From the IMG/VR virus record IMGVR_UViG_3300043398_000057: a stretch of 64,000 nt of DNA, one strand, 5' to 3'. A program made the translations under genes and the position numbers. Of the stretch, positions 2,851 to 60,362 are shown one piece after another (within the stretch, counting starts at the first letter, position 1; each line of letters begins with the position of its first letter). This DNA comes from a virus. The notes below the pieces were generated by a model. It was not told the origin of the DNA. It did not search any database and saw only the letters and a program-made list of their open reading frames with translations.

Positions 2851-4431
2851 ATGGCAATCATTACACTTCGCAATGAAAAGGGTTCGGCCCTTACCATTGC
2901 TGAAATGGACGCGAACTTTGTCAACTTGAACACCGACATTCAGACCCGTCTTCCAATCGAATCTTTCAGTGGCGAGGAAATTCTTTCTCGTTTGTTGAAT
3001 GTTGACGGTTCCGGTTCTGGTCTTGATGCTGACACGATTGATGGGTTCTCCACCTCGATTGTTTCAACAGGTTCAACCGTTGTTGTTCGAGATTCTACCG
3101 GCGCTATCAATGCTGGCGCGGGGTCGTTTACAACACTTTCTGGCACAACGTTGACGCTTGCGAACAATTTGATTGTTGGTGGACAAGCATCAATTGTTTC
3201 AAACCTGATTGTCAACGGAAACTTGACCGTCAACGGTACATCAACGTCTGTCAATACTTCGGTTGTCACAATTGAAGACCCGATCATTGAAATTGGTGGT
3301 GGTGAAGGTGGCTCGGCCCCTGCTACTAACGATGGTAAAGACCGTGGTATTGTTTTCCGTTATCATGATGGCAACACCGCAAAAACTGGCTTCTTTGGTT
3401 ATGATGCCCGCATGGCTAGGTTTGTGCATATTCCTGATGCTACTGTTACAGGTGAAGTTGCCACAGGCGTTTCTGTACCTTTGGTTTACCCCGAAGAAAC
3501 TATTCAAATCAACCGTCTTGGTGTTGGTATGTCTGCTAGTACCAACTACAGTATTAACGCAATTGGTGGTATTTCCGGTGCATCATAGAGTCTGAGTCAG
3601 TCGAACCCAACGGAAAAGTTGGAAGTCGGTTCCGGCTCTGTTAGAACTACTGGCGACAACCATGGTCTGAAAATTTCAAACGCTGCTGGGAACGGTGGTG
3701 GTAACATTATCGCGTTGAATGGTGCGAATAGTGGTTTGTCGATTTCATCGGGTAATGGCCCGATTAACGTTTCACATTCACTTTATCTCAAGTCTCAGTC
3801 AAACACCAATCAGTCATACATTCACATTGTCAATACTGCAACCGGTACAAACTTGACAGATGGGTTGATGATTGGTAATGATTCAAGTGGCAAGACTTTT
3901 ATCCGCAACTTGGAAAATGCCGGTGTTAGCATTCTGACGAATAACACAGAAGCTGTTGCAGTTGATCAAAACCAAAATGTTGGTATTGGTATCACACCGA
4001 CACGAAAACTTCATGTCAACGGTATTATCAAATCTGAAGTTGGTGGTATCGAGTTTCCTGATGGGTCGGTTCAAACAACTTCTGCGTCAGGTGTGCAACC
4101 AAACTTTGAACTACAGCACGCTCAAATCGCATCAACGACATTTACAACAAGTGTGATTGGTCAACAAGTTATTGACACAATTTCGGCAGTCAATTTCACA
4201 ACGATCAACTACACTGTCCAAATTTTTGCCAATGGTTCATATCATAGCACGAACTTGACCGTTGTTCATGATGGTGTGAATGCATATATGTCCGAGTATG
4301 GTGCGATCACAACGGTTTCTACGTTGGGCACATTCACAGTAGATATCAGCGGTGGATTGGTCAGATTGTTGTTCGATCCTATTTTTGCAAATAGCACAAT
4401 CAAGGCTGTTCGCACTTCGATTAAGGCATAA
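2851..4431 (+). CDS. Tail fibre-like protein, read through TAG at 3586-3588
   Basis: ORFs 2851-3588 and 3619-4431 are in frame and separated only by TAG (GAS*SLSQSNPTEKLEV). N-terminal LR..KGS.LT..EMD.NF, GSGSGLDAD, VGIG..P..KLHV.G and I.FPDGS.QT motifs. Confidence 0.75.
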
Positions 4432-4433
4432 TT

Positions 4434-5732
4434 ATGGCGACAACGAATGTTAATTTTCAGGTCAAGAATGGCCTTGAGGTTCCAACTGCAAACGACATTT
4501 ACGTTTTCGGGAAGACCCCCGCATTGGTAAGTCCGTTCGCTACATTCGATTTCTCCCGTTCAAAGGTTCTTGACCCTAGAATTACACTGACTAGAAATAG
4601 TGTCGCAACCGGATACAACGAATTTGGTAAGCTGATCACTTATGCAAATGATACACCAGTTTTCGAATGTGATTCCTTTACGGGCGAAAGTCTCGGGCTT
4701 TTGATTGAAGACTCCGCGATCAATTACGCTTTGTATTCTGAGCAAGCTGATAATGCAGTTTGGACAAAAACAGAAACTACAGTTTCCGCGACTACTTCTG
4801 TAGCTCCCGATGGAACATTGACTGCCGATAACTTCATCCCAAGCACAAATTCAACTGCGCACTCGATTGAACAAATTGTTACATCAACAACTAGTGCAGT
4901 GACTATTTCTGTTTTCGTTAAAGTCAACTCACTGGTTAACAAGGTTTCGATTTCACCGGGTGGCGCAAACAGACTTGCACATTTTGATTTCACCAATTTG
5001 ACTGTTGCAACTGAATCTGCGGTTCGTTCAGCAAAGATCAAAAAATTGAGAAACGGTTGGTACCGAATTTCAGCCAGTTATGCCGCTAGCGCAACCGCGT
5101 ATGACCGTTTCCGTTTCTTCGCTTCCAGTGGTTCACTAGGAAACTCTGCAACGGCTTCGAATGGTACCAATGGTATCTTGGTATGGGGCTTTCAGTTTGA
5201 ACGCAATACGCTGGCTACATCTTACATCCAAACGGTTGCGTCAACTGCGACTCGCGCAGCAACCCAAGTTTCTATCACCGGCACAACTTTTACAGATTTG
5301 TTCAAGGCTGTTGATGAAGGAACGCTCGAAGTGTTTTACAGGGTGTCCGAAGACGTTGACGGTTCGAGAGTTTTTGTGAGTCTGAATAATGGTACAGCAA
5401 ATAATGCATTGAGCATTTTGTCAAGTGCCGAAAACCAAGTTTCATCGTCTGTTGTCAGTGGTGGTACAACAGTTGCCTCTCTTACTGCTACCGACAACGC
5501 TATTGGCGAAACGTCAAACGTTGTTGCAGCGTACAACACAAACTTTTTCACCTTGAGTGCTAACGGTGGCAATGTTGTTACTGACGTTACTGGTACTGTT
5601 CCATCATTCAACAGAATTGATATTGGTAGTTTGTCGTTTCAGTCTCAAACATATTGCAACACGACAATTCGTAGAATTTGTTTTTATCCAATTGCTTTGA
5701 CAATTGACGAGACTAAGATTCTCTCAGTCTAA
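4434..5732 (+). CDS. Fibre/spike protein with LamG/ConA-like domain
   Basis: Motifs LDPRIT.TR.S.AT, GLLIE, NGWYR.S, WG.Q.E....ATSYI.T.....TRAA. Confidence 0.65.
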   Translation: MATTNVNFQVKNGLEVPTANDIYVFGKTPALVSPFATFDFSRSKVLDPRITLTRNSVATGYNEFGKLITYANDTPVFECDSFTGESLGLLIEDSAINYALYSEQADNAVWTKTETTVSATTSVAPDGTLTADNFIPSTNSTAHSIEQIVTSTTSAVTISVFVKVNSLVNKVSISPGGANRLAHFDFTNLTVATESAVRSAKIKKLRNGWYRISASYAASATAYDRFRFFASSGSLGNSATASNGTNGILVWGFQFERNTLATSYIQTVASTATRAATQVSITGTTFTDLFKAVDEGTLEVFYRVSEDVDGSRVFVSLNNGTANNALSILSSAENQVSSSVVSGGTTVASLTATDNAIGETSNVVAAYNTNFFTLSANGGNVVTDVTGTVPSFNRIDIGSLSFQSQTYCNTTIRRICFYPIALTIDETKILSV

Positions 5733-5771
5733 ATATAGTTTTAACGACCTTTTGGGGATAGGGAACCAATA

Positions 5772-8093
5772 ATGGCGTCACAAAGTTTGTTTGGTAAGGG
5801 TCCAAACCAAATTCCAAGAAATTCTGATCTTGGAAATATCGCGTTTCAAAACTCTGATTTCTTGAGAGTTACAAAACTTTCTTCTGATTTTTCACTGGCT
5901 GTTGGTAAAACTGTCGCGTCACATGCTGTTGATGTTGTTGGTGATGTGAATAGTACGGGCGTTCTAAGAATTAACGGTTCACAAATTCTTTCGAGTACAT
6001 CACTTGCAGAAAGTGTTGTCAATTCTTCTTTGACAAGTGTTGGTAACATCACTACCGGTACATGGTCGGCATCAATTGGTGCGGTTTCTGGTGCAAACCT
6101 CACAAACCTTACCGCTGGCAATCTTACCGGCACGATTACACCATCAGTTCTTGGTAATTCAACATTGTTTGTTGGAACCACACCAATTTCGCTTAACAGG
6201 TCGTCGTCAAATCTGACGCTCGCCGGTATCACATCGATTCAATAGCCCGGTTCTACATCGGGTACTGTAACGTTGGTTCCTAACGCTGTTGCTGGTACAA
6301 CTACACTGACTCTTCCCGCAAATTCTGGAAATATTGCTCGACTTGAAAACAACCTTGGTAGCTTTGCTCAAACAACATCGGCTCAGTTGTCAAACATTAT
6401 CAGTGATAAAACTGGTTCAGGTTTGTTGGTTTTCGCAAATTCTCCATCACTTCAAACCCCATCAGTTTCAACGTCAATCAAATCAAATTCTTCAACTTTT
6501 AGCATTTTTCCGGATACAGTTACATCTTTGTCTATTGGAGGAACTGAAACAACATCACTGAGTATCGCTGATGGTGTAGTCAACTCACAAGTCGTCAGAA
6601 TCTTTTCTGGTGATGTTCCTTCTACAGTTACAAGAAATTTTTTTATTGGTACTGGCGCGGAGTTGGGGTCTACAACCAATGTTACCGTAGGGAGTTCGGC
6701 AAATGGTCTGACAACCTTTTCATTCTCAAATACATTGCTGAAAAATATCTCTAGTGGTAGTTTTACATCAGCAAGTGGCAGTTTTAGTGGCGCGGTTACC
6801 GCTTCTCAATTTGTTTCAACTGTCGAAAACGGTACATCACCATTTGTTGTTAATTCTTCAACAAAAGTCGAAAACTAGAATGTTCATTCAACCGAAACAA
6901 CTTAGCAGTTTTCGATCCCGATACAGATTGATGTATCGGGAGATGTTACTAACACACAGATTCGAACTTTCGATGGTACAGCAAACGTTTCTATTCCAAC
7001 TCAAATTTTGACTGATATCACACCAACAAGTGTTTCTACAACGTCGCAGGGCGCCTTGAGTGGTTTCCGAAACCGTGTTATAAACGGTTGTATGAGAATT
7101 AGTAATAGATCGAATCAATCTTATATTAACACAACAGATGGTTCGATTCGTAAAACATTTTCAGCAATCGATAGATGGTATATGCGTGGTAGTGGTGGTT
7201 CCGGGGATGCTTTTAACGTATCGCAAGGTTTGAATTCTATTGTTTTCAACAATATCGTATATCCAGCCTGCCGACAAACCGTTACATCAGCGGCAAATCC
7301 AACAACTTTGTCAGGTTTTTTCTTTTACAGTGGAATTTCTCAACTTATCGAGTCAAGTAATGTCTATGATATGTTTAACGGTTCATCGAAAACTTCATTG
7401 TCTTTTATTTTTCTCACAAATGTTACGGGGACATACCCAGCGGTTCTAACGACTATCAGTTCAAATGGTAATGAGGCTAATACTTATTCGTTCACCTTTT
7501 CTGCAACTGCAAATACACCAATCAAAGTATCATATCTTATCCCATCTGTCACTCTTACAAATAATTCTCCTACGACTTCTAGCGGTTTGCGGTTATCTAT
7601 AGGCTCTATAGCATCAACGAATTATCAAACACCTTCGGCAAACGGGAGTATTTGGTCTGGTATTACCGGTGAAGCCCCTCCCAATGTTACTAATTGGTAG
7701 ACAACTTCTGGAAACTATATTTCTGTGGCACAAGTTCAATTTGAGCTTGGTCATGCAACATCTTTTGAACACAGACCTATTCAAATCGAACAAATGTTGT
7801 GCCATAGGTATTTTTGGAAAATTCGTAGAACTATTCAAACTCGCGTTTACAATCCAAGTACAGCAAGTCAAACAAATTACATTCATGTACAATTGCCGAC
7901 TCAAATGAGAATTGTTCCTACTGTGACATTTTCAACAAACACACAAACTGCCGGGACTACAGTGGCGTCAACAAATGTTAGTATTGATGGTTTTGAGATT
8001 TCACAAACTTCAACCGCTGTTGGTGACTATAGTGTAAGCATTGCGGGTCCAACTGGAACCAGTGTAAATCTATCCGCTAGCGCAGAACTATAA
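5772..8093 (+). CDS. Tail fibre protein A (774 codons) with 4 in-frame TAG (6243, 6876, 6903, 7698)
   Basis: Four ORF pieces form one frame ending in TAA and are colinear with paralog 8132-10426. GFRNR.ING and VQ.E.G..AT.FE.RP...E..LC.RY receptor-binding module. Confidence 0.8.
6225..6316 (+). repeat. 92-bp exact direct repeat, copy 1
   Basis: ggtatcacatcgattcaatagcccggttctac...actcttcc is identical to 8585-8676. Confidence 0.9.
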
Positions 8094-8131
8094 GTAAGTA
8101 AATTTATCAACCGTTTGTGTAGGAACCAATA

Positions 8132-10426
8132 ATGGGTACAAAAAGACTGATTGGCATTCTGCCCGATCAAATTCCAAGAAATTCTGATTTGGGGACACTT
8201 GCTTTCCAAAGTTCGGAATATGTCCGTGTTACCAGACTCGCATCAGATTCTTTTGTTGCTGTTGGTAAGGCTATCGCTTCACACCCATTGGATGTTGTTG
8301 GTGATCTAAACAACACTGGTTCATATCGAATCGGTGGAAACGTTATTCTGTCCACAACTACATTGGGTAACAGTGTAGTCAATTCATCGCTTACAAGTGT
8401 TGGAACAATCACAAGTGGTACATGGTCAGGTTTGTTCGGAAACATTTCTGGTGCAAATCTGACGAACCTTACTGCCGGAAACTTGACCGGTACAATTCCT
8501 TCTGTTGTTCTCGGCAATTCCTCACTTTATGTTGGTACAACTCAGGTTGCGTTGAATAGACCTTCAGGCAATCTCGCACTTTCTGGTATCACATCGATTC
8601 AATAGCCCGGTTCTACATCGGGTACTGTAACGTTGGTTCCTAACGCTGTTGCTGGTACAACTACACTGACTCTTCCAACATCGAGTGGCACCATTGCACT
8701 GTTGGCAAACAACCTTGGTAGCTTTGCTCCAACAACATCGGAGGAATTGCTAAGTGTTATCAGTGATGAAAGTGGTTCCGGCCAATTGGTGTTTTCAAAC
8801 TCGCCAACATTGACAACCCCAACAATTTCAACGTCGATCAAATCAAATTCTTCAACGTTCTCTATTGTGCCGGAAACCGTGACAACATTGAATGTCGGTG
8901 GTTCCGATTTGACCGACTTAACTATTGGTGCAAACACAACTACATCTCAAACTGTAAACATTGCAACAGGCGCGACAACAACTGGAAACACCAAGTCAAT
9001 TTTTATTGGTACCGGTGGTCTGAGTGGTTCAACCACTAATGTTACTATTGGTAGTAACACAGGCGCAGGAACTTTGCAAATTAACAGTCCATCAGTATCT
9101 TTCTCTGGCAATATGAATGTTGATGGTAGTGTTACTGGCAACACAGCAACATTTGTTTCGTCCGCAACTTCGAGGACATTTAATTCAACAGTCGCTACTG
9201 GTACTGCGCCATTTGTCGTGAACTCGACAACCCGTGTCGCGAATTTGAATGTTGCTGCTGCTGATGTTGCTGACAGGCTTACAACTCCTAGAACTATCAG
9301 TCTCAGCGGCGCTGTGACGGGCAGCGTGTCATTTAATGGTAGCTCAAATGTTAATATCGTAACATCGGTTACAGGCTCAATTACGCCATCTAGTATTGTT
9401 ACCACACAGCAGGGTGCGCTGAGTGGTTTCAGAAATCGAATTACTAACGGTGACGCAGTTTCATCTATTGTATATCCAACATCCACTATTACCGCTGGCA
9501 ATTCGGGGTTTTCCGGTCCCGCGAGATGGAAAATTGTACTGAACAATATAACCGGGCTGGCAATTACACAAACTTCTATTATCAACACCAACGCTACAAC
9601 AACACCTGTTGGCGGCATTAAACAAGCCGTAAGTTCTGCTGGTCCAGCCTCAATTGGCGCAACTCAATACTACCCTGGTATTCATCAAGTTATTGAGAGT
9701 GTAAACTGTGTTGATCTTTCTCAAAAAACTATTACAGTTTCTTTCTATTTTAGGTCTTCTGTGTCTGGAACATATGCGCTTGCTATTGGACAACATTCGG
9801 ATGCATCAAACGCTAACCCATCGTTTAGTTATGTGACAACTTTTACTATAGCTGTTGGTCAGGGCACTACGTTCCCTACCAGAATTGTTAAAACTATCCC
9901 CGCTGGTGGTATTACTCAAATTGCTTCGGCTAATGGTAATAAGGGAATTTCAATTTACATTGGTGCTATTGCAGGTTCAAATTTTGTTGCTGCTGCTGAT
10001 ACATGGACAAATACTTTTGCTGTTTCTACTGCGAATGCAACAAATTGGGCGGCAACCGCAAGTGCGGTAATTGAAGCATATAACATTCAATTGGAAGAAG
10101 GGCCAGTCGCAACACCATTTGAAAAAAGAACAGTCAGTGCTGAAAACCTACTGGTTAACAGGTATGTAGTTATTACAACTCGTCCCGTGTCATTTCTTGG
10201 ATACAGCCCAAATGCGAATGGTATCGCATACATGAATTATCATTTCCCCACGCCTATGAGAATTGCTCCAACACCAACATCAAATTTTACGGTTAGTGCA
10301 AATACTACGGGGTCATTTCTTGATGTTGGTGTTGATGGTATGACACTATCCGCTGTGAGGACTGATGCGGCAGCATCAATCTCGGCAACATACAACACAG
10401 GCAACATCATTTCAGCGGAGTTCTAA
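8132..10426 (+). CDS. Tail fibre protein B (765 codons) with in-frame TAG at 8603-8605
   Basis: ORFs 8132-8605 and 8633-10426 are in frame. Paralog of 5772-8093. Confidence 0.8.
8585..8676 (+). repeat. 92-bp exact direct repeat, copy 2
   Basis: Identical to 6225-6316, including the in-frame TAG. Confidence 0.9.
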
Positions 10427-10529: not shown

Positions 10530-10802
10530 ATGTCACCCGCAAGAAACAGACTTTAGGAAATCATCACTGACAGTAAAGACAAAAGATTGTCGCTGACCAA
10601 AATTGGTTCGTTCATGTCTTACATCATCATGAGTGTTGGTTTCGTTTACATCACCATGAAAATTGGTTTTGTTGCTGAAATGTGGATGATCTATGCCGCT
10701 GTTATGTCGGGTCATCAAACACTCAATAAGTTCTTGTCCCTGAAGTATGGCGCAGACAAGAATACCTCTAACGAAAGTTCAAACGATGGCACTCCCAAGT
10801 GA
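10530..10802 (+). CDS. Small two-TM membrane protein, holin-like, TAG at codon 9 (10554-10556)
   Basis: GAGG RBS, then MSPARNRL*EIITDSKDKRLSLTK followed by two hydrophobic segments. Confidence 0.55.
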
Positions 10803-12606
10803 TTTGAAATCAAGTCTCAAGAATCAGTCAAAATCATCTGATATTGAAAAGAGTCTTGAGAAACAAAACCAAAATATTGGCGAAACGCTCAAGGAATCAA
10901 TCAAGGATGGTTTCACTGAAGCTAAGAGTAGTGCTTCGGAATTCCGTACCAAATACTTTTCTCGTAGAGGTATTGGTAGAGAAACCATTCGAGGTGGTTT
11001 GTCAATTGCGGAAGAAATCATCCCGTTCGCAAAGAGTATCACAACGCCTATCAAGATGACGCTTGAGCGTGATTTGCAGGCTGAAATCAAGACTAAACGC
11101 GCACTGAACAATACTGAACTCAAGCGTGATGAAAAGGCTCAAAACGTCTTGCTTGAAAAGTTTGGCGAGTCTGTCAAAGACCAAGAACAAGGTCTGAGGG
11201 ACAAGTTCAAACAAATCATGAAACTCAAGGAAGAGGGTTTCAATGAACGTGACATTTTCGCTCAAGAAGGTTTCAAAGACTTCGAGAAGTTCTTTTACAA
11301 CAGTTTCAAGAAAACTGAAATCTCGCAAGATTCAAACCAAGAAAGTGGTTTGGGTGGTGAAACCACAACCGCAATCAAAGAACAGACAAAGATCATCACC
11401 GATCAAACTCAGGCGTTGCGTGATCAAACGCCCATTCTGAGCGCACAGGAAGAATCTCTAAAGAATATCAACACTTTGGTTGAACAGGTTGCAAATAGCC
11501 CACTGGCTAAAGAAATTCTGAACGATTACCAAACCAAACTCGAACAAATCATTAAGACTCGCGCAGAACAACAACCAAAAACTCTCAGTGATGAAGAAAA
11601 GGTTGCAAAGACTGTCACGGAGTTGGACGCTTTTACAGAATATCGAAAACTCAACAAAGACCTTGAAAATAAGTTGAAGCCTATTGTTGAGAAAGAGACT
11701 GTCAAAAAGAAAGTTTCCGAAAATCCCGGTTTGCCACTGATTACGAAACTTGAGAAACAGAAAGATCAGCTACCATTTAAGAAAACGGGTGTTGCAACTG
11801 GTTCTGCACTGTTGATGCAATTGCTTGAACGCGCGGGTTCAAACCCTAGTGATTCTATTGCTCAAAAACGTGCACAAGAAACACAAAAGGAAAACGAACT
11901 GGTTCACAATGAACTGCAATCCGAACAAAACAAAAAAATTGATACTGTAGCACAAAACACCGATGAAACCGTCACGGTTTTGAAATCAATTGAGGCAAAA
12001 CTTGATAAGGGTGGTGACGACACTGGTTCTTTCTATGATCGTCTGAAAGACCGATTTGGTGGTGTTATTGGCGGTGGCGGTGGAAAGGGTGGCAAGGTAA
12101 CGCCTCCGAAACCATCCCCGGGCGATGCTGGAAAAGCTAGCAAACTTGGAAAAATTGGTAAAGCTGGAAAAATGGGTTCGAGTCTTTTGAAGAAGATTCC
12201 GGGCGTTGGTCTTGCCGCTGGCATCGGTCTTGCGGGTAGTGCATTGCTTGATGGTGACTTTGTTGGTGCCGGGCTGAACCTTGCTTCCGGTGTTGCATCA
12301 ACGGTTCCGGGTATTGGAACCGCAATTTCTTTGGGTCTTGATGGTATCGATATGGCGAGAGATTTGACCGCTGTGACAGATAATATTTCCGCTGGTGTGG
12401 ATATGTTGCCCGATGTTTTGGAGAAAGCCGCAGATTCGAATCAATCGTTCATGGATGTTATCAAACAATCTCAAACACCATCAATTGTTGATGCATCAAC
12501 AGTGAACAACAATACATCGATTCAATATGTTGCGCCAAGGGTAAGAAATCCTGAACCAACATTTGAGCGTCTTAGTAATTCCAGATATGACACAAGGGTG
12601 AACTGA
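10786..12606 (+). CDS. Tail length/baseplate hub-like protein (gp29-like)
   Basis: Long helical protein with LKKIPG.GL..G......GDF.GAGL.LASG.AST.PG.GTA.S.G.D, a motif seen in T4-like tape-measure/hub proteins. Confidence 0.5.
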   Translation: MALPSDLKSSLKNQSKSSDIEKSLEKQNQNIGETLKESIKDGFTEAKSSASEFRTKYFSRRGIGRETIRGGLSIAEEIIPFAKSITTPIKMTLERDLQAEIKTKRALNNTELKRDEKAQNVLLEKFGESVKDQEQGLRDKFKQIMKLKEEGFNERDIFAQEGFKDFEKFFYNSFKKTEISQDSNQESGLGGETTTAIKEQTKIITDQTQALRDQTPILSAQEESLKNINTLVEQVANSPLAKEILNDYQTKLEQIIKTRAEQQPKTLSDEEKVAKTVTELDAFTEYRKLNKDLENKLKPIVEKETVKKKVSENPGLPLITKLEKQKDQLPFKKTGVATGSALLMQLLERAGSNPSDSIAQKRAQETQKENELVHNELQSEQNKKIDTVAQNTDETVTVLKSIEAKLDKGGDDTGSFYDRLKDRFGGVIGGGGGKGGKVTPPKPSPGDAGKASKLGKIGKAGKMGSSLLKKIPGVGLAAGIGLAGSALLDGDFVGAGLNLASGVASTVPGIGTAISLGLDGIDMARDLTAVTDNISAGVDMLPDVLEKAADSNQSFMDVIKQSQTPSIVDASTVNNNTSIQYVAPRVRNPEPTFERLSNSRYDTRVN

Positions 12607-13019
12607 TGAACTATCCAGTTAATCACAATTTGCATCCATTTAACGTTTACAATCAAAACAGGTTTGATATGACATACCTTGACATTTATGTTTCGACTGG
12701 TACAGACTTTGAGTTTACTTTTGATGTGAGCGAATTCATCGAGCCGGAAGACGATTAGCTTGATGGTTCGTGGACAATTGAAACCGTTTACTCTCAAAGC
12801 CGATATTCAAAAGTTAAACAGAATTTCTCGACGGAGATTTTGAATTCAAGAGAAATCAAAATCAGTTTGCAAGATTCGCAGACCGTAAATCTCAAATACA
12901 ATAAATATGTGTATTCGGTTTTTCTTGTAAAAGATTCTGCGAAGCGAACCCTTATTTCTGAAGGCGTGATGCAAGTAAATCAGATTGTGACTCCTAACAG
13001 ACAGAATGGGGGAATTTAA
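12606..13019 (+). CDS. Virion structural protein (absent from ORF track; TAG at 12756-12758)
   Basis: TGATG and TAATG couplings to both neighbours. GTDFEFTF...ISL...QT..LK...YVY.V......LISEG is the cyanophage-type small virion protein pattern. Confidence 0.7.
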
Positions 13020-13984
13020 TGCCTATCATTTCGACTAGAGAAGAATTCATTGACAATGTGAAACGCCGCCTTGGATGGCCCGTTATCAGTTTGGAACTTG
13101 AAGAAAACCAGATTGACGACCGTGTTGATGAAGCAATCGATTTTTTCTTTGATTTCCACTATGACGGTACTGTTAGAACCTACTTGAAGCACCAACTGAG
13201 TGCAACAGAGGTATCATTCGTGAGTCCTGCTTAGGGAATCATTCCGGGTGAGCGTTTGGAACGCTCAGATGGCTCAGGGTTCACCGTTTTGAGTGTTGCC
13301 AATGGCTCAGGTAGTGTCCTCACAAAAAACTCGTCTGGTGTCCAAATTGGCGAAACGCTGACCGGTAACATGTCCGGTGTCACTGTTGTGATTGACGCTG
13401 TTGATATCGGAGACATTGAAAACCGGTTCATCGACCTTCGTGACATTAACGGTAACCATGTGATTCGAGGCGTTTCAAGAATTGTTCCGATTGAGAGTGC
13501 ATCCGGTACGTCAAATGGTCATGTGTTTGATGCGCGTTATCACGCAACAATTGACGCTTTGTATACCATCAATCATGGCGGAATGCTTGACTACAGCATT
13601 GCAATGTCAAACTTGACTTTGTTGGATCAAGTTTTGCGCCCACGCCAATCAGTTCGGTTCAACAAGGCTCAAGGGTTGCTGTATGTTGATATGGATTGGG
13701 AAAAATACACCCCGGGCGACTAGATCATTGTTGATTGCTTCCGTGTTGTTGATCCTGAAATTTTCAGCGACATTTACAATGATCGAAACTTGCAAAAACT
13801 TGCCGCAGCATACCTGAAAAAGCAATGGGGTACAAACATCAAGAAATATGCAAACGTTTCTCTGATTGCTGGTGTCACGATTGACGGTAACACGATTTAT
13901 CAGGAAGGTGTTGCGGAGTCTGCCGAAGCTGAAACTTCTATCAGGGATAACTATGAAATCCCACCTATCGGATTCTTTGAGTAA
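13019..13984 (+). CDS. gp13: Neck protein gp13, TAG at 13232 and 13721
   Basis: RRLG.PVI..E....QIDDR.DEA, K.QWG.N.KKY..V....GVT.DG..IY and C-terminal YE.PP.GF motifs, all in one frame. Confidence 0.9.
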
Positions 13985-14778
13985 TGGCAACAATCAACCC
14001 ATTTTTTAACCGTTCGGCCAAACAAGTCGAGGCCGAATATGTTCAGGACATGATTGAAGAATCTATCAAGATTCAGGGTCTTGAGGTTTACTACATTCCT
14101 AGAATCCTGAACAATTTTGACAAGATTTTCGGCGAGTCAACTGACGTTTCTTTCAACGTTGCTATTCCAATGGCAATGTATCCCGAAACTCGTCAATTCA
14201 TCGGTCAAGACACGTTGACACGTTTCGGTTTGCAGTCTTTCCAAACATGTGATTTTTCTGTTGGTAGAAGACACTTCGAAGAACAATATCGAGATAATAT
14301 CCCACCATCGCGTGACCCAAAACTAACTTGGCGACCATGTGAAGGTGACTTGATTTTCATTTCGTCTAATGTTATTCAGGGCAACCCATCAATTTTTGAA
14401 ATCAAGTTTGTTGATGATGATTCACCTGTTTGGCACCAATTGGGTAAGAATTTCACATGGAAACTCAATTGTGAATTGTTCCAATACAGCAAAGAAGAGT
14501 TCTCTACCGGTAACACCGAAATTGACAATGATGTGTTCGGAAAGTACAACACAACAAATGAGAAATACATTTTGTTGGAAATCTCTTCGGATGCCATTCA
14601 AACCAGTTTGGCATATGAGCAATCCGGTACACCGATCAATCTTGAGGCATCAGAAAATTCAGAAACTTCTACTGTTGTGACAACGCCATATGGCGACAAC
14701 ATGGAAATCAAACAAGAATTTTGTGAGAAAATCGTAACTAATGAATGGGATGAATCCGATCCCTTTGGAGGTTTCTAA
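13984..14778 (+). CDS. gp14: Neck protein gp14
   Basis: EES.KI.G.EVYYIPR......D.IFGE, RP.EGDLI, FEIKFV, QLGK motifs. Confidence 0.9.
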   Translation: MATINPFFNRSAKQVEAEYVQDMIEESIKIQGLEVYYIPRILNNFDKIFGESTDVSFNVAIPMAMYPETRQFIGQDTLTRFGLQSFQTCDFSVGRRHFEEQYRDNIPPSRDPKLTWRPCEGDLIFISSNVIQGNPSIFEIKFVDDDSPVWHQLGKNFTWKLNCELFQYSKEEFSTGNTEIDNDVFGKYNTTNEKYILLEISSDAIQTSLAYEQSGTPINLEASENSETSTVVTTPYGDNMEIKQEFCEKIVTNEWDESDPFGGF

Positions 14779-15599
14779 TGATTCCGGGTTTCACTGGTCA
14801 TCAAGTAATTCGTAAAACGGTTGTTGCTTTTGGTAGCTTGTTTTCTCGTTTGTACGTTATCACCAGAAATAAGGATGGTGAAATCATTCAATCGAAGAAG
14901 ATTCCGATCACATATTTGCCAAAGGAAAAGTGGGTTCGTCGTACTGGTGAAAACCCTCTGGTCACAAACGAAATTTTGACAACTCTTCCGCGTGCTTCGT
15001 TCGAGTTGACAAACCTTTCATACAACTCTTCGCGTCAGTTGCCAAAGTTCAACCAAACTTCCATCAATGGCGGTGGAACACAGGGTTCACCAACGCCTTA
15101 CGACTTGTCATTTAACCTTTATGTGACCACCAAGACGCTTGATGAAATGTATCAGGTCATGGAGCAAATTCTTCCATTCTTCAGCCCGGAATAGGTTGTC
15201 AGTGTGAAGGTGGACGGTTCATCTGATGGTGTCATGGATGTTCCAATTATTTTGGAAAGCAATACAACTGAAGACTCGTATGATGGTGATTTTGTTGACC
15301 GTAGAGAAATCATCACGACATTCACGTTTACAGCCAAGGTAAATCTGTATCAGGCAACCAAGGGTATTGATTACGCCAAAATTGCCGGTATTGTTGATGA
15401 ATGCTGTAATGATGGTGAAGTGCTTGGTAGAATCAAGAAAGTCATTATCGACATTCCTCAAGGCAACACAAGGTATACGGCACAAGTTGTGCAGGCTTCA
15501 GCCGAAAAGGAAGACTTGCACAAGGTTATCGAATCCGAAAACGAAATGCCTATCGAAGACCTTATCAAAAACGTGAACATTCATCCTGAGTATTTCTGA
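14778..15599 (+). CDS. gp15: Tail sheath stabiliser/terminator gp15, TAG at 15192-15194
   Basis: IRK.VVAFG.LF, TLPR.SFE, EQILPFF.PE*, D.PI.L, Y.GDF..RR motifs. Confidence 0.9.
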
Positions 15600-47395: not shown

Positions 47396-47403
47396 CATGG
47401 TAC

Positions 47404-47694
47404 TTACTTTACCAGTTGGAATGTCTTTTTGTCAACCTGTTGACGCCACAAAAACACGTTCGTCATATGGGCATACAACCTACCTACAGATTGATCACCA
47501 AGAATAGAGTAACTGTAGCACAGTTGCCCCTTTTTGATTGGTTCACGTTCAAGTTGGTTGATGAAGTATTCCCAAAACAGTTGTGATTCTTCAGTCTCAG
47601 CGTTGTCAAATTCTTGAATCGCTTGATCAACTACAGCACACCAACGGTTTTTCTTGACCGATACAATCTTCGTAGCCTAAACGTTTCCGGTCAT
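47404..47694 (-). CDS. Hypothetical protein (not in ORF track; TAG at 47677-47679)
   Basis: ATGA-coupled start; MTGNV*ATKIV... runs 97 codons to TAA and fills the gap. Confidence 0.55.
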
Positions 47695-47946
47695 AGCTTC
47701 ACCATTTCGTAAAGTTGTGCACGGTTCATGAACTCGCAATCCTTTTCAGCATCAACCAGATAACGGTAAATGCTATGTGCACCTTTATCGACAGCACCCT
47801 TGACAGGCTTGAACGTCACCGCATCAAGCATGACCATACAGAACTTGTCAAGATGTGGAACATAGATCAGCTTGAACAAAGTGTTGTCCAATTCGCAAAT
47901 CGTTCCACGGGGTGCAGTCAGAATTGATGCCGGATGCGTATTCAGG

Positions 47947-48264
47947 TTAATGATCTTGTCCATCTTCACACCTCAAATAGTTAGAGATTGAGTGATACTT
48001 CTCGATACGATCAACTTTTTGTTTGGCAACATCTTTGTCAATCAAAGGGTCGGTAATACCAAGTTCATGCTTGAGCATCATCATACACGAAAACAGTTCA
48101 GAAAACTCGGTAAAGAGATGTTCAATGTTGGTTTTCTCCAACACCACACCATCAGAGGTTTGTTGATGGTTGTGGTAGCCAAACTTTTGACACTTGGACT
48201 ATGCTTGTGCAACTTCAGCACACTCTTCCATGACCGACAGACCGATAAAATCAATTCGCTTCAT
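47947..48264 (-). CDS. MazG-like NTP pyrophosphohydrolase, TAG at 48199-48201
   Basis: MEECAEVAQA*SKCQKFG...N.E.L..E..EL; TGATG-coupled to gp46. Confidence 0.75.
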
Positions 48265-49967
48265 CACTTTCCTTCCAAGTAGCTGAACCCGTCAACGTCC
48301 TTAGAGAACGTCACAACATCATCAAACAGGTGGGTGATACCGGTGTCAGTTGCCTTGTGAGAAACCACATAGACGCCCATATCATCAAATTCCTTATCGT
48401 AGAACATTTCAATCATGGTCACGAATGAATCACCGGCAAGGGTTTCCAGAACTTCGTCACAGAACAGAATGTTACACTGGAACTTCGCCTTCAACTGGCT
48501 AATCTTTCGGAATGCCATCAAGATAGCCATGTCCAACTTTGCCTTCTCGCCACGACTCAAATTGTTGTAGCTGAAGTTGTCGCGATCACGACTCAGAATC
48601 TGCTCATTGAATTCACCATCAAAACTGAATTTTGTTGACAGTTCAAGCATGTCGGTGTAATCATAAACAGCAGAGTTGAACTCTGACAGGTATTGCTCGA
48701 TAACCGATTTCTTGATACCGTCATCCTTCAGAATTTGAGTCATCACCGCGCCGATTGAAACTTGTTCTTGCAGCTTGGCGATTTCGCCCTTCATGGTCTT
48801 GGCACGGGCAGCAATCGATTTTGCTTCTTCCTTAGCTTCGGTCAGCTTACTTTCATCAATGCTTTGTAGCTTTGATTTGATTTGTGATGCACGTTGTTTG
48901 ATAGAGTTTGACTCGGTGCTGATCATCTGAAGTTGCTGAATCAGGTTTGTGGATTCTTGGCGAAGGTCGGCTGGTTCAACAAGAACACCAAAGTTTTCAA
49001 TCTTGTCGAGCGTCTTAGCGAGTTTGTCTTTCGCCCCAACAATACATTCTTCAGCATGTGCAATTGTTCGGTCAACCTTTTCACCGGAAATAGAACTTGA
49101 ACATGTTGGACAAACACCAGCGATCTTCTTCTTTTTCTCAGCGTCTTCAATTTCTTGCTTGTATTTGATAACCGAATTCTTGAGATTTTGCAGTTCTCGT
49201 TCACGGTCATAGTACGCATCAAGTTGTTCCTTGATTTTCTGACTTTGTTCGGTCAGCTTTTCATAGGGTTCGGTGACTTCCTGATACTTCAGACGACACT
49301 CTTCCAACTCATTGGTAAGTGTGGTCTTTTGATCACCAAGCATTTCACTGATGGTTTCGACAGTCTTGGTAGCGAGTTGGAACTTTTCTTTCAGGGCTTC
49401 ATAGTTGTTTTGCATTGTCTGCAAATTCTTCTGAGCGTCCTTATATTCCTTGGCGTGAATATCCTTCATCATCGTGAGAATACCAAGGTCAATGATTTCG
49501 TCAACAAATGACCGGCGTTCGGCAGCTTTCATCATCATGAACGGTTGATAGTTTTCAACGCTGATCATGACGGTTCGGATGAAGTGCTTGTAGTCGCAAC
49601 CAATCACGCTATCGAGGTATGTCTGATAGTCGCCAACGCGCGTTTGGTCAAGCAAAACGCCATCTTCATAGATTTCAAAGATGTTAGGCTTGATGCCACG
49701 GACAACACGATATTCAATTGTTCCGCGATTGAACTCGATTTCGGTGACGCAATTCTTGTTGTTGATGGTGTTGACAATCTGAGGCTTGTTAAGTTCCTTG
49801 ATAGGCTTACCGAACAGCGCAAACACAACAGCCGAAACCAGTGTTGACTTGCCAGCACCATTTTTACCAACAATCAAGAACTTTCCGTGCTGAAAATCAA
49901 ACTCAATCTCAGCGTTACCGGTAGAAAAGAAGTTCTTGTACTTGACTTTCTTGAAATTTACGATCAT
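48264..49967 (-). CDS. gp46: Recombination endonuclease ATPase subunit gp46 (Rad50-like)
   Basis: YKNF.STGN, G.NGAGKST, CPTC hook, LS.GE, CDE, SH motifs. Confidence 0.95.
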   Translation of the reverse strand: MIVNFKKVKYKNFFSTGNAEIEFDFQHGKFLIVGKNGAGKSTLVSAVVFALFGKPIKELNKPQIVNTINNKNCVTEIEFNRGTIEYRVVRGIKPNIFEIYEDGVLLDQTRVGDYQTYLDSVIGCDYKHFIRTVMISVENYQPFMMMKAAERRSFVDEIIDLGILTMMKDIHAKEYKDAQKNLQTMQNNYEALKEKFQLATKTVETISEMLGDQKTTLTNELEECRLKYQEVTEPYEKLTEQSQKIKEQLDAYYDRERELQNLKNSVIKYKQEIEDAEKKKKIAGVCPTCSSSISGEKVDRTIAHAEECIVGAKDKLAKTLDKIENFGVLVEPADLRQESTNLIQQLQMISTESNSIKQRASQIKSKLQSIDESKLTEAKEEAKSIAARAKTMKGEIAKLQEQVSIGAVMTQILKDDGIKKSVIEQYLSEFNSAVYDYTDMLELSTKFSFDGEFNEQILSRDRDNFSYNNLSRGEKAKLDMAILMAFRKISQLKAKFQCNILFCDEVLETLAGDSFVTMIEMFYDKEFDDMGVYVVSHKATDTGITHLFDDVVTFSKDVDGFSYLEGK

Positions 49968-52657: not shown

Positions 52658-53564
52658 TGATGTTCCCCATAAAGTTGTCCAGACCCATGGTGACGAAAAA
52701 GTTCATCATTTTCATGGTGTTTTTCTTCTTTCCTTGATGTGAGGTGTACTGGTTCACGATTCTCTCACGAATCGACACGGGAATCTTGGCGAAGTCTACC
52801 AAAATTTGATTTCTCATGAACCTTTGCTTCTGAATATCGTCTTCAAAAGGTAGTGGTTCACCAGCCATCATCTTTTCATAGAAGGTGTCGATCAACTTTT
52901 GTGAAACTGGTGGTTGTCGCTTTTCCTTTGTAACAAACTGATCATCAGGGGACTTGAAATTCGGAACACCGTCACCTTCATCACCTTTCATGATCTTTGT
53001 CAACAAATCAAGTTTTGGGCGTTCAGAAACAATCATGGTGTCGTCACGCTTTGAGTATTGCTGAACATTTTCGTGAACTTGCAGAGACTTGTAATCATGG
53101 TCAGAAGACACGATCAAGATAGATTCAGATTGCTCGAACACACCGCGCATTTGAACCGTGTTTTTGGTGATATAACGGGTCAAAACGCCGATACCATCAT
53201 CAGCTTCAGCCTTGTCATCTCGAATCGCAATCCATGGAAGATACTCATTCACATCATCATGAAATTCATTCAGGTACTGATTGAACAGATTCCAATTGAT
53301 TGCTTCCGTCTTGCGCTTTTCTTTTCTGGCAGATTTGTAATACTCGAAAACATCGTTACGCCAAGTGTTGCTACCATCAACACACATAACAATTTGTCCG
53401 AAGTCTTTTGAAAACTTTCGGTTGACGTTAAGCATTTGACTCAAGATGTGACCATAGAGGTATTTCTTGGTTTCATCATCAGGTTTACAGAACGATGCCT
53501 TTAGGTATGGGTCAGCGTGTAGACTCGCAACCGCTAGACCGTTGGTGTCCACAAGAATTGTCAT
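52647..53564 (-). CDS. rnh: RNase H (T4-type 5'-3' exonuclease)
   Basis: WR....YYK..R, EADD.I, I.SSD.D...LQ, GD.GDGVPN..S.DD, RN..L.D motifs. Confidence 0.92.
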   Translation of the reverse strand: MTILVDTNGLAVASLHADPYLKASFCKPDDETKKYLYGHILSQMLNVNRKFSKDFGQIVMCVDGSNTWRNDVFEYYKSARKEKRKTEAINWNLFNQYLNEFHDDVNEYLPWIAIRDDKAEADDGIGVLTRYITKNTVQMRGVFEQSESILIVSSDHDYKSLQVHENVQQYSKRDDTMIVSERPKLDLLTKIMKGDEGDGVPNFKSPDDQFVTKEKRQPPVSQKLIDTFYEKMMAGEPLPFEDDIQKQRFMRNQILVDFAKIPVSIRERIVNQYTSHQGKKKNTMKMMNFFVTMGLDNFMGNINEF

Positions 53565-53899
53565 TTTGGCGTGATCCCCAAAGCCTTGTCAGACTTGTTC
53601 ATGTGATACTTTTGCAAAATGAACAGCAAGCAGCAAATCGCATGGGCGGCATGGTGCTTACCAGATTCTTCATCAAGTTCGATACCATCCAACATATCAA
53701 GAATGTGACGCAAAACAGCGTCATCATAACGATAGTCTTCAACGTTCATGTAGTTGCCACGGGCGTACTTTGCTGCACCCATTTCAAGCACATCAATAAC
53801 GTCACGAAATGCCGCGATGAGGTCTTTCAGAATCTATGTGGGGCGAGGCTTGCCGCCATCAAATTTAATGCCACCAAGCTCGTTCTTAGGCGTTTCCAT
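53561..53899 (-). CDS. dATP/dGTP diphosphohydrolase-domain protein, TAG at 53834-53836
   Basis: GIKFDGGKPRPT*I...VL..GA.KY...N....RY.DA..RH...D.ESG.HH.AHA.CC..F motif. Confidence 0.85.
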
Positions 53900-56433: not shown

Positions 56434-56694
56434 TCAGGAATTCAGTGCGCTAGAGGTCTTATCGAGGGTCGAACCCGGGCAGTTTGCGTGCATGTGCTTT
56501 AGCACATCCTTGAAACCATCGGGAACCTTCAGACCACCAGAACCGGCCACAATTTTGATAGGCGTCACAGTCTTGAAAATTTTTCCACCACACTTTTGGC
56601 AAGGTGTTTCACAAGGCTTTTCTCGGTTTGAAATTGATTGCAGATCATCAAAAACATTGTCACATGATTCACATGCATAGGTGTACAGCGGCAT
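56434..56694 (-). CDS. FmdB-like zinc-ribbon protein
   Basis: MP.Y.Y.C..C...F...C..CGG and PDGFKDVL motifs. Confidence 0.8.
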   Translation of the reverse strand: MPLYTYACESCDNVFDDLQSISNREKPCETPCQKCGGKIFKTVTPIKIVAGSGGLKVPDGFKDVLKHMHANCPGSTLDKTSSALNS

Positions 56695-58256
56695 TAACTC
56701 TTTCTCCATTTTCCATTGATGATTGTAACCAATTGTCGCTTTCCGTTGTTGTGGATAATGCAGTTTGTATGTAACCAGCTTGATGGGCCAGTCAAATACT
56801 CCAAATCCATTCTACTTAGAGTGCCAACTTGGAAACAACCATTTTGAATACCGGGGGTATGCGAGTGACCGATAATCAGTTTATCACCAATCTTAGCCAG
56901 ATTTTGAATACTGCCTCTCGCACCATTGGGACCACTGTGACCATGAAGACCACATTCGATACCAGCGATATTCACAGAACCATTTGAGAATTCGATGTTG
57001 CCACAAATTCCCTTAGATTCCCAAAGAGTGTCACGGAAAATTTCAAATGCAGACTGCGACTTACCAGTTTTCTCAATTTGCTGAAGTTTTGTGTACATCA
57101 GGTAATGGTAGATTTTCGCATTCACATAGTCATTTCGAATGTCAGCACTATTCAACCACTGCTCAACATGGTCATGGTGATTCGATGAAACGATAATGGA
57201 TTTTGAGAATCTTGGCGTTGTCATTGCAAGATGATCCAAAGTCAGTCGCATTTCTCGTTCAATCGAATTCATTCCAGAACTCATGTTCTTGGTGAACCGG
57301 GTGAAGAAATCATTGTTGTGCCACTTGGAAACACTGTAGGAATCCAGAACATCATGGCGAACAATGACTTGAGGTTTCAGAACGTTCACCATAGATTTCT
57401 TATCGAAGAACGTTGCATCAGCGGCCTTTTCATCTGAGAACAAAACGTGTTCATCACCACAGACCAATGCGGCAACACTACACTTCGAACCATTGCTTGT
57501 TTCATCCCATCGTTCATCAAGGTCATAGAACCCGCCTGTATGGTCAGCAAACAGTTGTCGAAGGTGGAAGGTACTACCTTCATCAAATTCGATTGCAACA
57601 GCCGCAAAACAATGATGGAAAGAGGCTTGATAACCAGCCTTTGATGCCGAATAGTTGTTCTTGGATGAAATACTACCAGTTGAATGTAGAATGATAGGTT
57701 CATTCCATGGATTCACCGGCAGAGACTTCATCTGAACAACCGAATGCCCGACGATTGTTGTAATACCTTCACACAGCTTATCAATACCGGTCAGAGGGTG
57801 GGTTGCGGTCGCTTGAATGTTGCAATCGCCAATGATCTTGAACTTATCTTTCCATCGAACAGTTGTATCAAGAAAATACTTTGTGGCGCGGGTAGGCCAA
57901 GTTTTACCACCATCCTTGTGCATGGCGGAAGGGTTTTGATACTTGATAGGAATCACAAACAGTTTGAAGTTTTTGCGTTTGCAAAACTTCTCAAGGTTTG
58001 TCAAAAAGCTATCATTGATGGGCGTGTCATTGATGCAAGATGTTACAACAATACCACGATAAGAAGGATAAGCATACTCAAAGTCAACAGAGGGAAGAAT
58101 CGGGTTAGATTTGTTTGCAACTTCTCGAACAAACTTCTTATCGCTTTTTGTGACATGGTTACATTCCTCACATTCATAGTGGTGCTAACTTTTCTTACCG
58201 GCGAACCGTGGGCCGATATATCGTGTTTTGTATGATCCACAACTTTCACACTTCAT
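56694..58256 (-). CDS. T5 A1-like metallophosphoesterase nuclease with N-terminal Zn ribbon, TAG at 58185-58187
   Basis: CESC...CEEC, GDEH, HDVLD, SNH, HGH.GPNGARGS, IGHSH.P, QVGT, GPSSWLHT, NGKR motifs. Confidence 0.7.
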
Positions 58257-58319: not shown

Positions 58320-58577
58320 TCAGTCCTGATACAGACAAATCAATCGATAACGATTGTAGGTAACACGACGACCCGAACGAACCTTGGTTACCGGTTCAGA
58401 AATAATGTTGAAACCATCAACAATGCAACGCTTTCGCAGACGACAAATTTCAGCGGTGGGCTTTTCAATCTTGAACTGTGCCCGAATCTGTGCAGAGGTA
58501 AGGGGTCGATCCTTCAGTGCCAGATACAGGCGTTCGATCTTTGCAGTCTTCTTAACGGTCTTGGTTGTCTTGGTCAT
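58320..58577 (-). CDS. Small winged-HTH protein
   Basis: LT..QI...F.I..P.A.I..LR and YRL motifs. Confidence 0.6.
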   Translation of the reverse strand: MTKTTKTVKKTAKIERLYLALKDRPLTSAQIRAQFKIEKPTAEICRLRKRCIVDGFNIISEPVTKVRSGRRVTYNRYRLICLYQD

Positions 58578-59008
58578 GTAGATTTCCTTCTATAAGTTTT
58601 GTAATCGATGCCAGCTTCGATAAGCATCGAGATTGAAAAATCAGGGTTCCAACGTTCGGCAAACTCTGGTTCGGGCTCATACCACACAACGCGAGAAATG
58701 CCACTCTGAATCAGCATCGATGTGCAGTTTGAACATGGTGGATGGGTGATATAGATTGTAGCACCCTCAACCGATGTTCTTGCAGTGAGTCTAGCATTCA
58801 ATTCAGCATGAATTACGGTCTTGTATTTGATTTCTCGGGTTTCAAGATACCTTTCATCATCTAACCCGGATGGAATACCGTTGAAACCCTATGAAATGAT
58901 TCGGTTATCCTTGACAATGGTAGAACCAACTTGTGTTGAAGGGTCTTTCGACCACGACGACACAAGTTGTGCCATCTCAAGATACCGTCTATCCCACTTT
59001 TCAGACAT
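58574..59008 (-). CDS. cd: dCMP deaminase, TAG at 58889-58891
   Basis: SKDPSTQVG, IIS*GFNG, HAE.NA, PC..C motifs. Confidence 0.92.
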
Positions 59009-59504
59009 TATCAAACGTGTGAACAAAGGGCTTCAGGTCGGGTGGAGTCCAGCCTTCAGGCTTGAGAATCTTACCGTCTTCACGCTTGATGCAAACACCG
59101 GTTGTCGGATCGATCTTAGCCAGATTGGAACGGGCAACCTCACGCCAAGCACCATCGAAGTCCCAATTCATGCGTTGACAATGATCAGTTGCAAACGTCA
59201 TGAAATTAAAGAATTCCTTGACATTTTCATTTTCCGACATAACAATGTCGGTGTAGTCATTACCCTCAGAAACGAACTTACCAATCCATACCCATGCGGT
59301 ATCACACAGACCATCAAGGTGTTCGACATAGTTTTCAAAAGTTGGTGCGCCAGAAGCAGCAGCAGCAGTTTCTTGTTGTTCTTCGGTGATCAACTTTTCA
59401 TACAGTTGAACTTGTTCAGGGTTGTTCACATCAATGGTCTGACCAGCGGCAGACATGAAAGTGACAACATCGGAAAACATATCAATCAGAGTCAGTTCAC
59501 TCAT
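59001..59504 (-). CDS. MazG/HisE-like (PRA-PH-like) NTP pyrophosphohydrolase
   Basis: LI.EE..E, D.L.D, EV.RSN..K, REDGKILKP.GW.PPDL motifs. Confidence 0.8.
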   Translation of the reverse strand: MSELTLIDMFSDVVTFMSAAGQTIDVNNPEQVQLYEKLITEEQQETAAAASGAPTFENYVEHLDGLCDTAWVWIGKFVSEGNDYTDIVMSENENVKEFFNFMTFATDHCQRMNWDFDGAWREVARSNLAKIDPTTGVCIKREDGKILKPEGWTPPDLKPFVHTFDNV

Positions 59505-59687
59505 TTCATTCCTTTTCTTCGATGATTGGGATTTGCGGGTCTTCAGCCAAAATATCATCAATTTTGACAACGCCTTCGATTTTCTTACACACATCACACT
59601 GAAAACCAATGTAGATTCCTGTACCTTCTTGAAAGGTACAGATTCTACCATTGTAACGGTTTGTGAGATGTGCTAACCAGTGGAACA

Positions 59688-60362
59688 TTACTTCTTCCTT
59701 GCTGCAACCTTCTTAGCTGGAACCTTCTTTGATGCAACCTTCTTCGCGGGTGCCGCAGATTGAAGCAGTTCCATAGCTTCGAAGTATTCCTTACGCTTTT
59801 GCAAACGTTCAATGATTTGTTCAGCATCAAACCAGAATTCCATACCCATGATGACCTTTTCAATTTCGTCTTCTGAGAGGAAACCTTCATAAACCTCATG
59901 CACGAACTTGTTGACCCACTTGTTCGAGAATGAGGCGTATGCGTTGATGTTGTTGTCGGTACCACCATAGCCGTGCGATGCGGTATGGATCATCATTGTA
60001 GCACCGGGAAGAATGATTTGTTCGTCACATCCCAAAAGAATCATGGAACCGGCAGAGGATGCCGAACCAACATGAATGCCGCGAATGTGCGCTTTGGTGA
60101 TAGCCATCGCATCAAGAATTGCGCGGCACGATTCCATCATACCACCGGGGGTGGCAAAGAACATGTCAACTTGATCACTCTCAGTCGCAGAGTAAAGAAA
60201 GTCAAGCAGTTTTGAATACTGCATAACATCCACAATGGGACCATAGAACCGTGCCTTGGCAACGTAGTTCGTCAGTGGAATCTACTCAAGCTCAAATGGC
60301 ACCCGCGTTTCATCTTCATCAAGATCGATTTCGGTCTTTGGAGTTGTCTTTTTGGTTGTCAT
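59688..60362 (-). CDS. ClpP-like protease, TAG at 60282-60284
   Basis: TPGG, ASSAGS.I.L, M.H.AS.G, GFLS..EI motifs; the N-terminus extends through TAG to a proper ATG. Confidence 0.75.

Follow-up and report, generated by a model that had tools for sequence, protein, structure and literature searches.

In-frame TAG codons of a T4-like freshwater phage: sense codons, with leucine the most probable meaning

The IMG/VR record IMGVR_UViG_3300043398_000057 provides 64 kb of T4-like myovirus DNA (hereafter the window, meaning the whole stretch that was analysed), with a G+C content of 42.7%. Several of its genes are broken in frame by the amber codon TAG and never by TAA or TGA. The locus therefore raises the question of whether TAG is still a stop codon in this phage and, if not, which residue it encodes. 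Judged from the sequence, TAG is almost certainly a sense codon here. That it is a sense codon with leucine as its most probable meaning is likely, although this fuller statement is held less firmly than the first.

The first-pass annotation of the window had listed 29 in-frame TAGs, on both strands, in 20 genes. All 29 coordinates are TAG or CTA within open reading frames (ORFs) closed by TAA or TGA, so the number of codons and their presence on both strands stand, but the genes number 19. PHROG or Pfam matches, or alignments to homologues or paralogues, extend on both sides of 25 of the 29 TAGs. For the other four (33451, 47677, 58185 and 60282) the evidence consists of ORF continuity and tight gene packing. 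Five more in-frame TAGs (8120, 16596, 32997, 33048 and 63082) were left out of the count, because they precede likely starts or belong to doubtful ORFs.

TAG is not used as a terminator in the window. The claim that all gene ends are TAA or TGA holds for each of the 103 called genes, 55 of which end in TGA and 48 in TAA. When TAG is treated as a stop, 123 genes are called with 92.6% coverage, and 17 of them "end" in TAG; when it is treated as sense, the 103 genes cover 95.7%, and the comparison of coding density proposed in the first-pass annotation thus comes out on the side of a sense codon. Intergenic gaps longer than 100 nt drop from 15 to 6. Sixteen of the 17 TAG-ended ORFs called under code 11 are in-frame pieces of longer frames, and the 17th, of 48 aa, lies inside the limits of the 47404-47739 frame but does not end at that frame's own in-frame TAG. 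Among ORFs of at least 100 aa in T4 and the relatives G001-G004, TAG makes up 5-23% of the ends, and reading it as sense changes long-ORF length by -2% to +3.4%, as against +9.9% in the window. No in-frame TAG was found in the orthologues of related phages. Since about 30 TAGs lie inside essential replication and virion genes and no gene ends in TAG, the codon is almost certainly read as an amino acid. Three of the features by which alternative-code phages in the sense of Borges et al. are recognised are present, namely a recoded stop in frame within conserved genes, longer ORFs, and early genes compatible with the standard code.

Untranslated TAGs would have to come from errors of sequencing or assembly, or else from a defective phage whose genes have decayed into pseudogenes. 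Nothing favours this beyond the fact that TAG is a stop in the standard code. The Logan contigs of the likely source run, a separate assembly, show zero differences over 12500-26418 (run X1 shows no cover over 26444-32400), and an independent 2018 riverine run (X5) matches positions 29679-30034 of the record, again with zero differences, spanning TAGs 29707 and 29821. Related strains are present in eight studies. TAG alone interrupts frames, yet it is missing from all gene ends, and its distribution is non-random both by gene class and by position within genes. Untranslated TAGs are given next to no credence. A systematic base-calling artefact caused by DNA modification was also considered and rejected, because independent assemblies agree and the TAGs have no common sequence context.

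The residue was addressed by scoring profile columns in two separate sets of genes. In the first, nine genes were run against PHROG with hmmscan, with TAG translated as X, L, Q, Y, I, M, V or F, so that score differences reflect the emission odds at the TAG columns. The sums were 908.5 bits for L, 904.1 for F, 899.8 for I, 897.9 for M, 889.9 for V, 885.6 for Y, 884.7 for Q and 883.9 for X. The score of a fibre gene moves with the alignment envelope, and the sums were therefore also taken without it; L then led I by 4.4 bits, M by 5.5, F by 8.3, Y by 17.3 and Q by 20.1. In the second set, local hidden Markov models (HMMs) were built from homologues of gp41, gp15, UvsX, RegA, gp43A, gp13 and dCMP deaminase, and 20 residues were scored at 10 sites. 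Here L reached 10.3 bits, followed by M (9.5), V and I (8.6 each), F (7.5) and Y (5.6), with W (0.2), S (-1.2), Q (-2.4), K (-5.2) and E (-5.6) much weaker. Leu is first in both gene sets in this column tally, of a kind that the first-pass annotation had called for on the whole genome. The profile scoring gives Leu a lead of 18 bits over Tyr and 26 over Gln. A pyrrolysine reading of TAG was rejected as well, given the poor Lys-like fit (-5.2 bits).

The TAG columns are hydrophobic and Leu-like, and the three most conserved hydrophobic ones, in UvsX, RegA and the dATP/dGTP pyrophosphohydrolase, call specifically for Leu. At least 90% of 113 UvsX homologues have Leu in column 56, and all nine RegA homologues have it in the codon 32 column; T4 has Leu in both, as the alignments of the first-pass annotation had indicated. 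In the pyrophosphohydrolase, L gains 5.9 bits over X, and gp41 codon 67 also falls on a column in which Leu prevails (L 64, I 29). A further pair noted earlier, between the paralogous tail fibres, is also confirmed: where fibre A has TAG 6876, fibre B has TTG (Leu). No other Leu codon is as common in the window as TTG, which is used 442 times. Among the residues whose tRNAs are one anticodon change from CUA (Leu, Ser, Trp, Tyr, Gln, Lys and Glu), Leu is best by at least 10 bits. The proposed Leu identity is thus upheld as the best-scoring residue, with the caveats given below.

A TAG-to-Gln code of the code 15 type would be the obvious precedent, since it is the only widely reported TAG meaning in recoded phages (10.1101/2021.08.26.457843; PMC9523058), and the Glu column at one gp41 site would accept Gln. 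Gln is nevertheless 23.8 bits below Leu in the nine PHROG genes and 12.7 below at the 10 local sites, and it would replace an invariant Leu in UvsX and RegA. The column scores effectively refute this code, and it is regarded as very improbable.

It is less easy to separate Leu from its chemical neighbours. TAG could specify Ile, Met, Phe or Val through an unusual suppressor tRNA, as the TAG columns are hydrophobic in general and Ile, Met and Val come within about 1-2 bits of Leu at the 10 local sites. Phe is second in the PHROG sum, chiefly owing to the fibre gene, and at gp41 codon 299 and the gp43A, MazG and HNH endonuclease sites I or M scores slightly above L. Leu still ranks first in both gene sets and fits the three specifically Leu columns. 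The preference for Leu over Ile and Met also rests on the bacterial leucyl-tRNA synthetase (LeuRS), which does not read the anticodon. For IleRS, MetRS, ValRS and PheRS the anticodon is a main identity element, and no anticodon of their tRNAs can become CUA in fewer than two changes. For that reason tRNAs of these types are not expected to be efficient amber suppressors, and another hydrophobic residue is considered unlikely.

Several observations weigh against leucine. The TAG at 29707 (gp41 codon 337) falls in a column where 109 of 120 homologues (91%) have Glu and none has Leu; the context is identical in the four closest relatives, and the column also contains V, T, K, H, Q and D. None of the 48 true Leu codons of gp41 and gp15 lies on a column of this kind. 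The TAG sites of gp15 and gp13 are on mainly aromatic columns. The Leu lead over Ile and Met, about 4-5 bits over approximately 17 sites, does not statistically separate Leu from another hydrophobic residue. When 10 real Leu codons were drawn at random, 99% of the draws fitted Leu better than the 10 TAG sites did, in the shallower homologue sets used first; deeper alignments shifted two of the TAG sites towards Leu and Ile. As to decoding, ARAGORN identified no tRNA gene in the 64-kb window, and there is no release factor or aminoacyl-tRNA synthetase among the window genes annotated with Pfam and PHROG. A distant relative, G001 (IMGVR_UViG_3300028601_000023, 141 kb), has a six-tRNA cluster at 101163-101896 that includes a 78-nt tRNA-Leu(CAA) according to ARAGORN. 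G001 uses TAG as an ordinary stop, in 33 of its 141 long ORFs.

The discordant sites could mean that decoding is ambiguous, with more than one suppressor tRNA, or near-cognate host tRNAs acting after release factor 1 (RF1) is disabled, inserting different residues; the TAGs would then be tolerated descendants of TTG, GAG and TAY. GAG and TAY are each one change from TAG, which would suit the Glu column of gp41 codon 337 and the Tyr/Phe columns of gp15 and gp13, and with shallow homologue sets there is no single residue that the TAG set fits as well as real codons fit theirs. Deeper alignments, however, leave one strongly discordant site, and the residues that near-cognate tRNAs usually insert at UAG (Gln, Tyr, Trp and Lys) are 10-26 bits below Leu. 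A statistical proteome would also be costly in a helicase, a recombinase and a polymerase. Ambiguous decoding is accordingly rated as improbable, about on a par with another hydrophobic residue. Since GAG is one change from TAG, gp41 codon 337 may be a tolerated GAG-to-TAG (Glu-to-Leu) change under a leucine code, or it may be a site that is decoded differently.

TAG is sparse, with 29 occurrences in approximately 20,800 codons (about 1.4 per 1000), and it is not spread "across the genome" as had been stated. Two blocks, at 16.1-26.4 and 36.0-47.4 kb, contain no TAG, where 10.1 would be expected from the distribution of Leu codons; the limits of both blocks were set after the data had been seen. 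Block 1 (16100-26400, minus strand) has mostly small genes, including gp32 and an RNA ligase, and five early-type promoters with the pattern TTGACA-N16/17-SATAAT (16796-16824, 17259-17287, 21475-21503, 21727-21754 and 26394-26422, minus strand). Block 2 (36000-47400, minus strand) includes the NAMPT and NMNAT/Nudix genes and has three such promoters (37947-37975, 39538-39566 and 39883-39911, minus strand). All eight exact matches to the pattern are thus in the TAG-free blocks and on the gene strand, where 0.07 would be expected by chance. Because all eight sites are in the two blocks, the TAG-free genes appear to be those behind early, host-type promoters. In six of the eight sites, the spacer between the hexamers carries a G+C-rich hairpin (of the GGCCC-CGAA/TTCG-GGGCC type). 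The promoter-like sites also seem to behave as dispersed repeats, since contigs in the Logan assembly of the source run end close to several of them.

Within genes, 19 of the 29 TAGs are in the first third (p = 0.0015 against random Leu codons, for genes outside the TAG-free blocks), and T directly follows TAG in 1 of 29 cases (p = 0.024). The 5' bias points to incomplete suppression that would compete with RF1.

These patterns can be combined into a likely sequence of events. The two blocks of small genes behind sigma-70-type promoters would be expressed first, and an unmodified host, in which TAG is a stop, could translate them because they contain no TAG. A phage-encoded amber suppressor tRNA of the Leu type, with anticodon CUA, would then decode TAG in the genes for replication, nucleotide metabolism and the virion. 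Such a tRNA-Leu(CUA) would presumably be charged with leucine, because bacterial LeuRS does not read the anticodon. The switch in code would have to precede replication, since TAG interrupts the polymerase, helicase, recombinase and RegA genes. The suppressor would have to compete with host RF1, which would explain both the rarity of TAG and its concentration at 5' ends, where an aborted chain costs least, and TAGs placed there could serve as a timing gate. It is thus proposed, with somewhat better than even confidence, that a freshwater T4-like lineage independently evolved a TAG-to-leucine code that is switched on during infection, with a tRNA-Leu(CUA) as decoder and the 5' TAGs as cheap checkpoints.

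On the plus strand, the gene for a virion structural protein (2851-4431, +) is one 526-aa frame with TAG 3586 at codon 246, and a match to phrog_15769 at residues 158-256 spans the TAG. Tail fibre A (5772-8093, +; phrog_4492) has TAGs 6243, 6876, 6903 and 7698 and aligns with tail fibre B (8132-10426, +) across all four. The TAG of fibre B, 8603, is the same codon as 6243 in fibre A. The two fibre paralogues (5772-10426) are 46% identical overall, but about 50 nt around this common TAG are identical, which points to gene conversion or to a strong constraint on the N-terminal domain. The next TAG-bearing gene encodes a small membrane protein (10530-10802, +) with TAG 10554 at codon 9, spanned by a phrog_1322 match at residues 6-86. 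A phrog_1084 gene (12606-13019, +; match at residues 22-134) has TAG 12756 at codon 51, where L gains 2.6 bits over X.

The gene for the gp13-like neck protein (13019-13984, +; phrog_211, residues 5-313) has TAGs 13232 and 13721, the first in a G/T/A column that is mostly gaps and the second in an F/Y/V column. That for the gp15 tail sheath stabiliser (14778-15599, +; phrog_227, residues 7-252) has TAG 15192 at codon 139, in a column with 16 Y, 15 F, 3 L and 1 I; the closest relative has the I, in an almost identical context. The gp16-like small terminase gene (15599-16045, +; phrog_445, residues 5-139) has TAGs 15704 and 15740 in uninformative columns.

On the minus strand, TAG is found in replication genes and in regA. 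The regA translational repressor gene (26448-26861, -; phrog_242, residues 10-136) has TAG 26766 at codon 32. The gp41 replicative helicase gene (29347-30717, -; Pfam DnaB_C) has TAGs 30517, 29821 and 29707 at codons 67, 299 and 337, and in the 120 homologues the first two columns are L64/I29 and I52/V30/L20/M10, respectively, the third being the E109 column discussed above. The uvsX recombinase gene (30805-31878, -; Pfam T4_UVSX_C and RecA) has TAG 31711 at codon 56. In several related phages uvsX is split by intein-like insertions with Hint and intein-splicing Pfam domains (L010:4125-5598; P0224, P0283, P0288, P0291 and P0296), and the intein-bearing UvsX is about 490 aa instead of the usual 357 or so. 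The uvsX of the window is without such an insertion.

The polymerase gene is in two parts on the minus strand, gp43A (34353-35975) and gp43B (31953-32927), with an HNH homing endonuclease gene (33283-34356) in between. The gp43A part, containing the exonuclease and the N-terminal part of the polymerase (Pfam DNA_pol_B_exo1 and DNA_pol_B), has TAG 35697 at codon 93, in a V/I/M/Y column. The HNH gene (phrog_655, residues 3-226) is one 357-aa frame with TAGs 34345, 34093, 34024 and 33451. No other gene of the window is as dense in TAG (4 in 357 codons). This density suggests that the gene is written in the phage's own code and is not a recent arrival from a standard-code genome.

The remaining minus-strand genes with TAG include several of nucleotide metabolism. 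A gene without a family match (47404-47739, -) has TAG 47677 at codon 21, and its evidence is ORF continuity. The MazG-like NTP pyrophosphohydrolase gene (47947-48267, -; phrog_4856, residues 10-102) has TAG 48199 at codon 23, where I and L score best. In the dATP/dGTP pyrophosphohydrolase gene (53561-53899, -; phrog_801, residues 8-96), TAG 53834 is codon 22, and the match scores 87.3 bits with L, 81.4 with X and 80.1 with Q. PDB sequence searches with these two proteins gave no matches. The phrog_1745 protein gene (56694-58256, -) has TAG 58185 at codon 24; the match begins at residue 26 and does not span the TAG, which leaves gene packing as the evidence, and a locus search with this protein returned no matches. 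The dCMP deaminase gene (58574-59026, -; phrog_174, residues 7-145) has TAG 58889 at codon 46, and in solved homologues this column is occupied by I, V, T, T and H. The ClpP-like protease gene (59688-60362, -) has TAG 60282 at codon 27, and its CLP_protease match begins past the TAG. The read-through start of this gene is 9 nt from the stop of the upstream gene.

In the window as a whole, profile searches with PHROG and Pfam recognise gp13, gp15, gp16, tail fibres, RegA, gp41, UvsX, and gp43A and gp43B, with further matches to gp44, gp32, gp46, gp47, dCMP deaminase, a MazG-like protein, dATP/dGTP pyrophosphohydrolase, a ClpP-like protease, NAMPT and NMNAT/Nudix. Genes are on the plus strand up to about 16.1 kb and on the minus strand from about 16.8 kb, and a public gene call on a Logan contig spanning 41.3-64.35 kb places all genes on the same strand. 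The NAMPT gene (44738-46213) and a gene for a fused NMNAT/Nudix protein (46293-47348) form an NAD salvage pair in the second TAG-free block, on the minus strand.

By sequence similarity, the phage lineage is isolated. UvsX is 55% identical to that of Tequatrovirus and at most 72% identical to anything in IMG/VR or JGI metagenomes, and the best match of gp41 among 5.8 billion proteins has 52% identity. An exact 41-mer of uvsX has no occurrence in IMG/VR or in JGI metagenome contigs, and a protein-based locus search of genome contigs found no relative. The phage DNA is carried by metagenome runs of 2018 and 2025 that come from freshwater, riverine and aquatic samples in eight studies, and no RNA run is among those listed.

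In the literature that could be searched, the stop reassignments described in phages are TAG to Gln, TAG to Ser, TGA to Trp and TGA to Gly (10.1101/2021.08.26.457843; PMC9523058; PMC4695839; PMC13037316). A TAG-to-Leu reassignment in a phage was not found in that literature. Code 15-type phages, which include crAss-like, Lak and other gut phages, resemble the window phage in having in-frame TAGs in conserved genes and in having lost TAG as a terminator (10.1101/2021.08.26.457843; PMC9523058). The published model for recoded gut phages is that early genes are compatible with the standard code and that the code is switched later (10.1101/2021.08.26.457843). The window phage seems to share this arrangement of early and later genes, and a phage suppressor tRNA would be expected in both. 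It differs in its residue, which is Leu-like and not Gln (24 bits worse), and in being a T4-like freshwater myovirus and not a gut phage. Its TAGs are also in polymerase, helicase and recombinase genes instead of being confined to late or lysis genes, and they are sparse and biased to the 5' ends of genes. Ivanova et al. 2014, as summarised in PMC4695839, likewise describe stop reassignment in uncultured metagenomic phages, with a cognate tRNA(CUA) of the kind that is presumed for the window phage. That summary lists Ser and Gln only (PMC4695839), and in the window phage Ser is about 11 bits below Leu on the local sites.

The same assignment is found outside phages. TAG is read as Leu in NCBI codes 16 and 22, those of chlorophycean and Scenedesmus mitochondria. 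Codon and residue are the same as proposed here, and the route is likely to be the same, through a tRNA-Leu with its anticodon changed to CUA. Those codes belong to organelles with their own translation, whereas a virus would impose its reading on a standard-code host, and only after the early phase. The window is not a green-algal mitochondrial genome, as it encodes T4-type gp13, gp15, gp16, gp32, gp41, gp43, gp44, gp46, gp47, UvsX and RegA. In E. coli, the suppressor supP (Su6) is a tRNA-Leu(CAA) mutated to CUA, a laboratory mutation with partial efficiency. The mechanism proposed for the phage is the same, with a single anticodon change and charging by a LeuRS that is blind to the anticodon. 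The supP host genome, however, keeps its TAG stops, while the window phage has purged them and would depend on suppression for essential genes.

What is probably new here is that a freshwater phage of the T4 type recodes a stop codon, most probably to leucine. Known recoded phages are mostly from gut communities. If the leucine code is true, it adds a new meaning of a stop codon in viruses and extends recoding to the best-studied family of virulent phages. In T4-type phages the timing, the tRNA genes and the control of translation are open to experiment. The 5' bias and the TAG-free early blocks provide a concrete hypothesis, in which suppression competes with RF1 and gates expression. Standard gene callers, set to code 11 or even to code 15, would split or mistranslate roughly one fifth of this phage's genes, including those for DNA polymerase, helicase and recombinase. 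If the leucine code did arise independently in this lineage, reassignment of a stop to Leu would be a recurrent viral solution that reaches beyond gut phages and beyond Gln or Trp.

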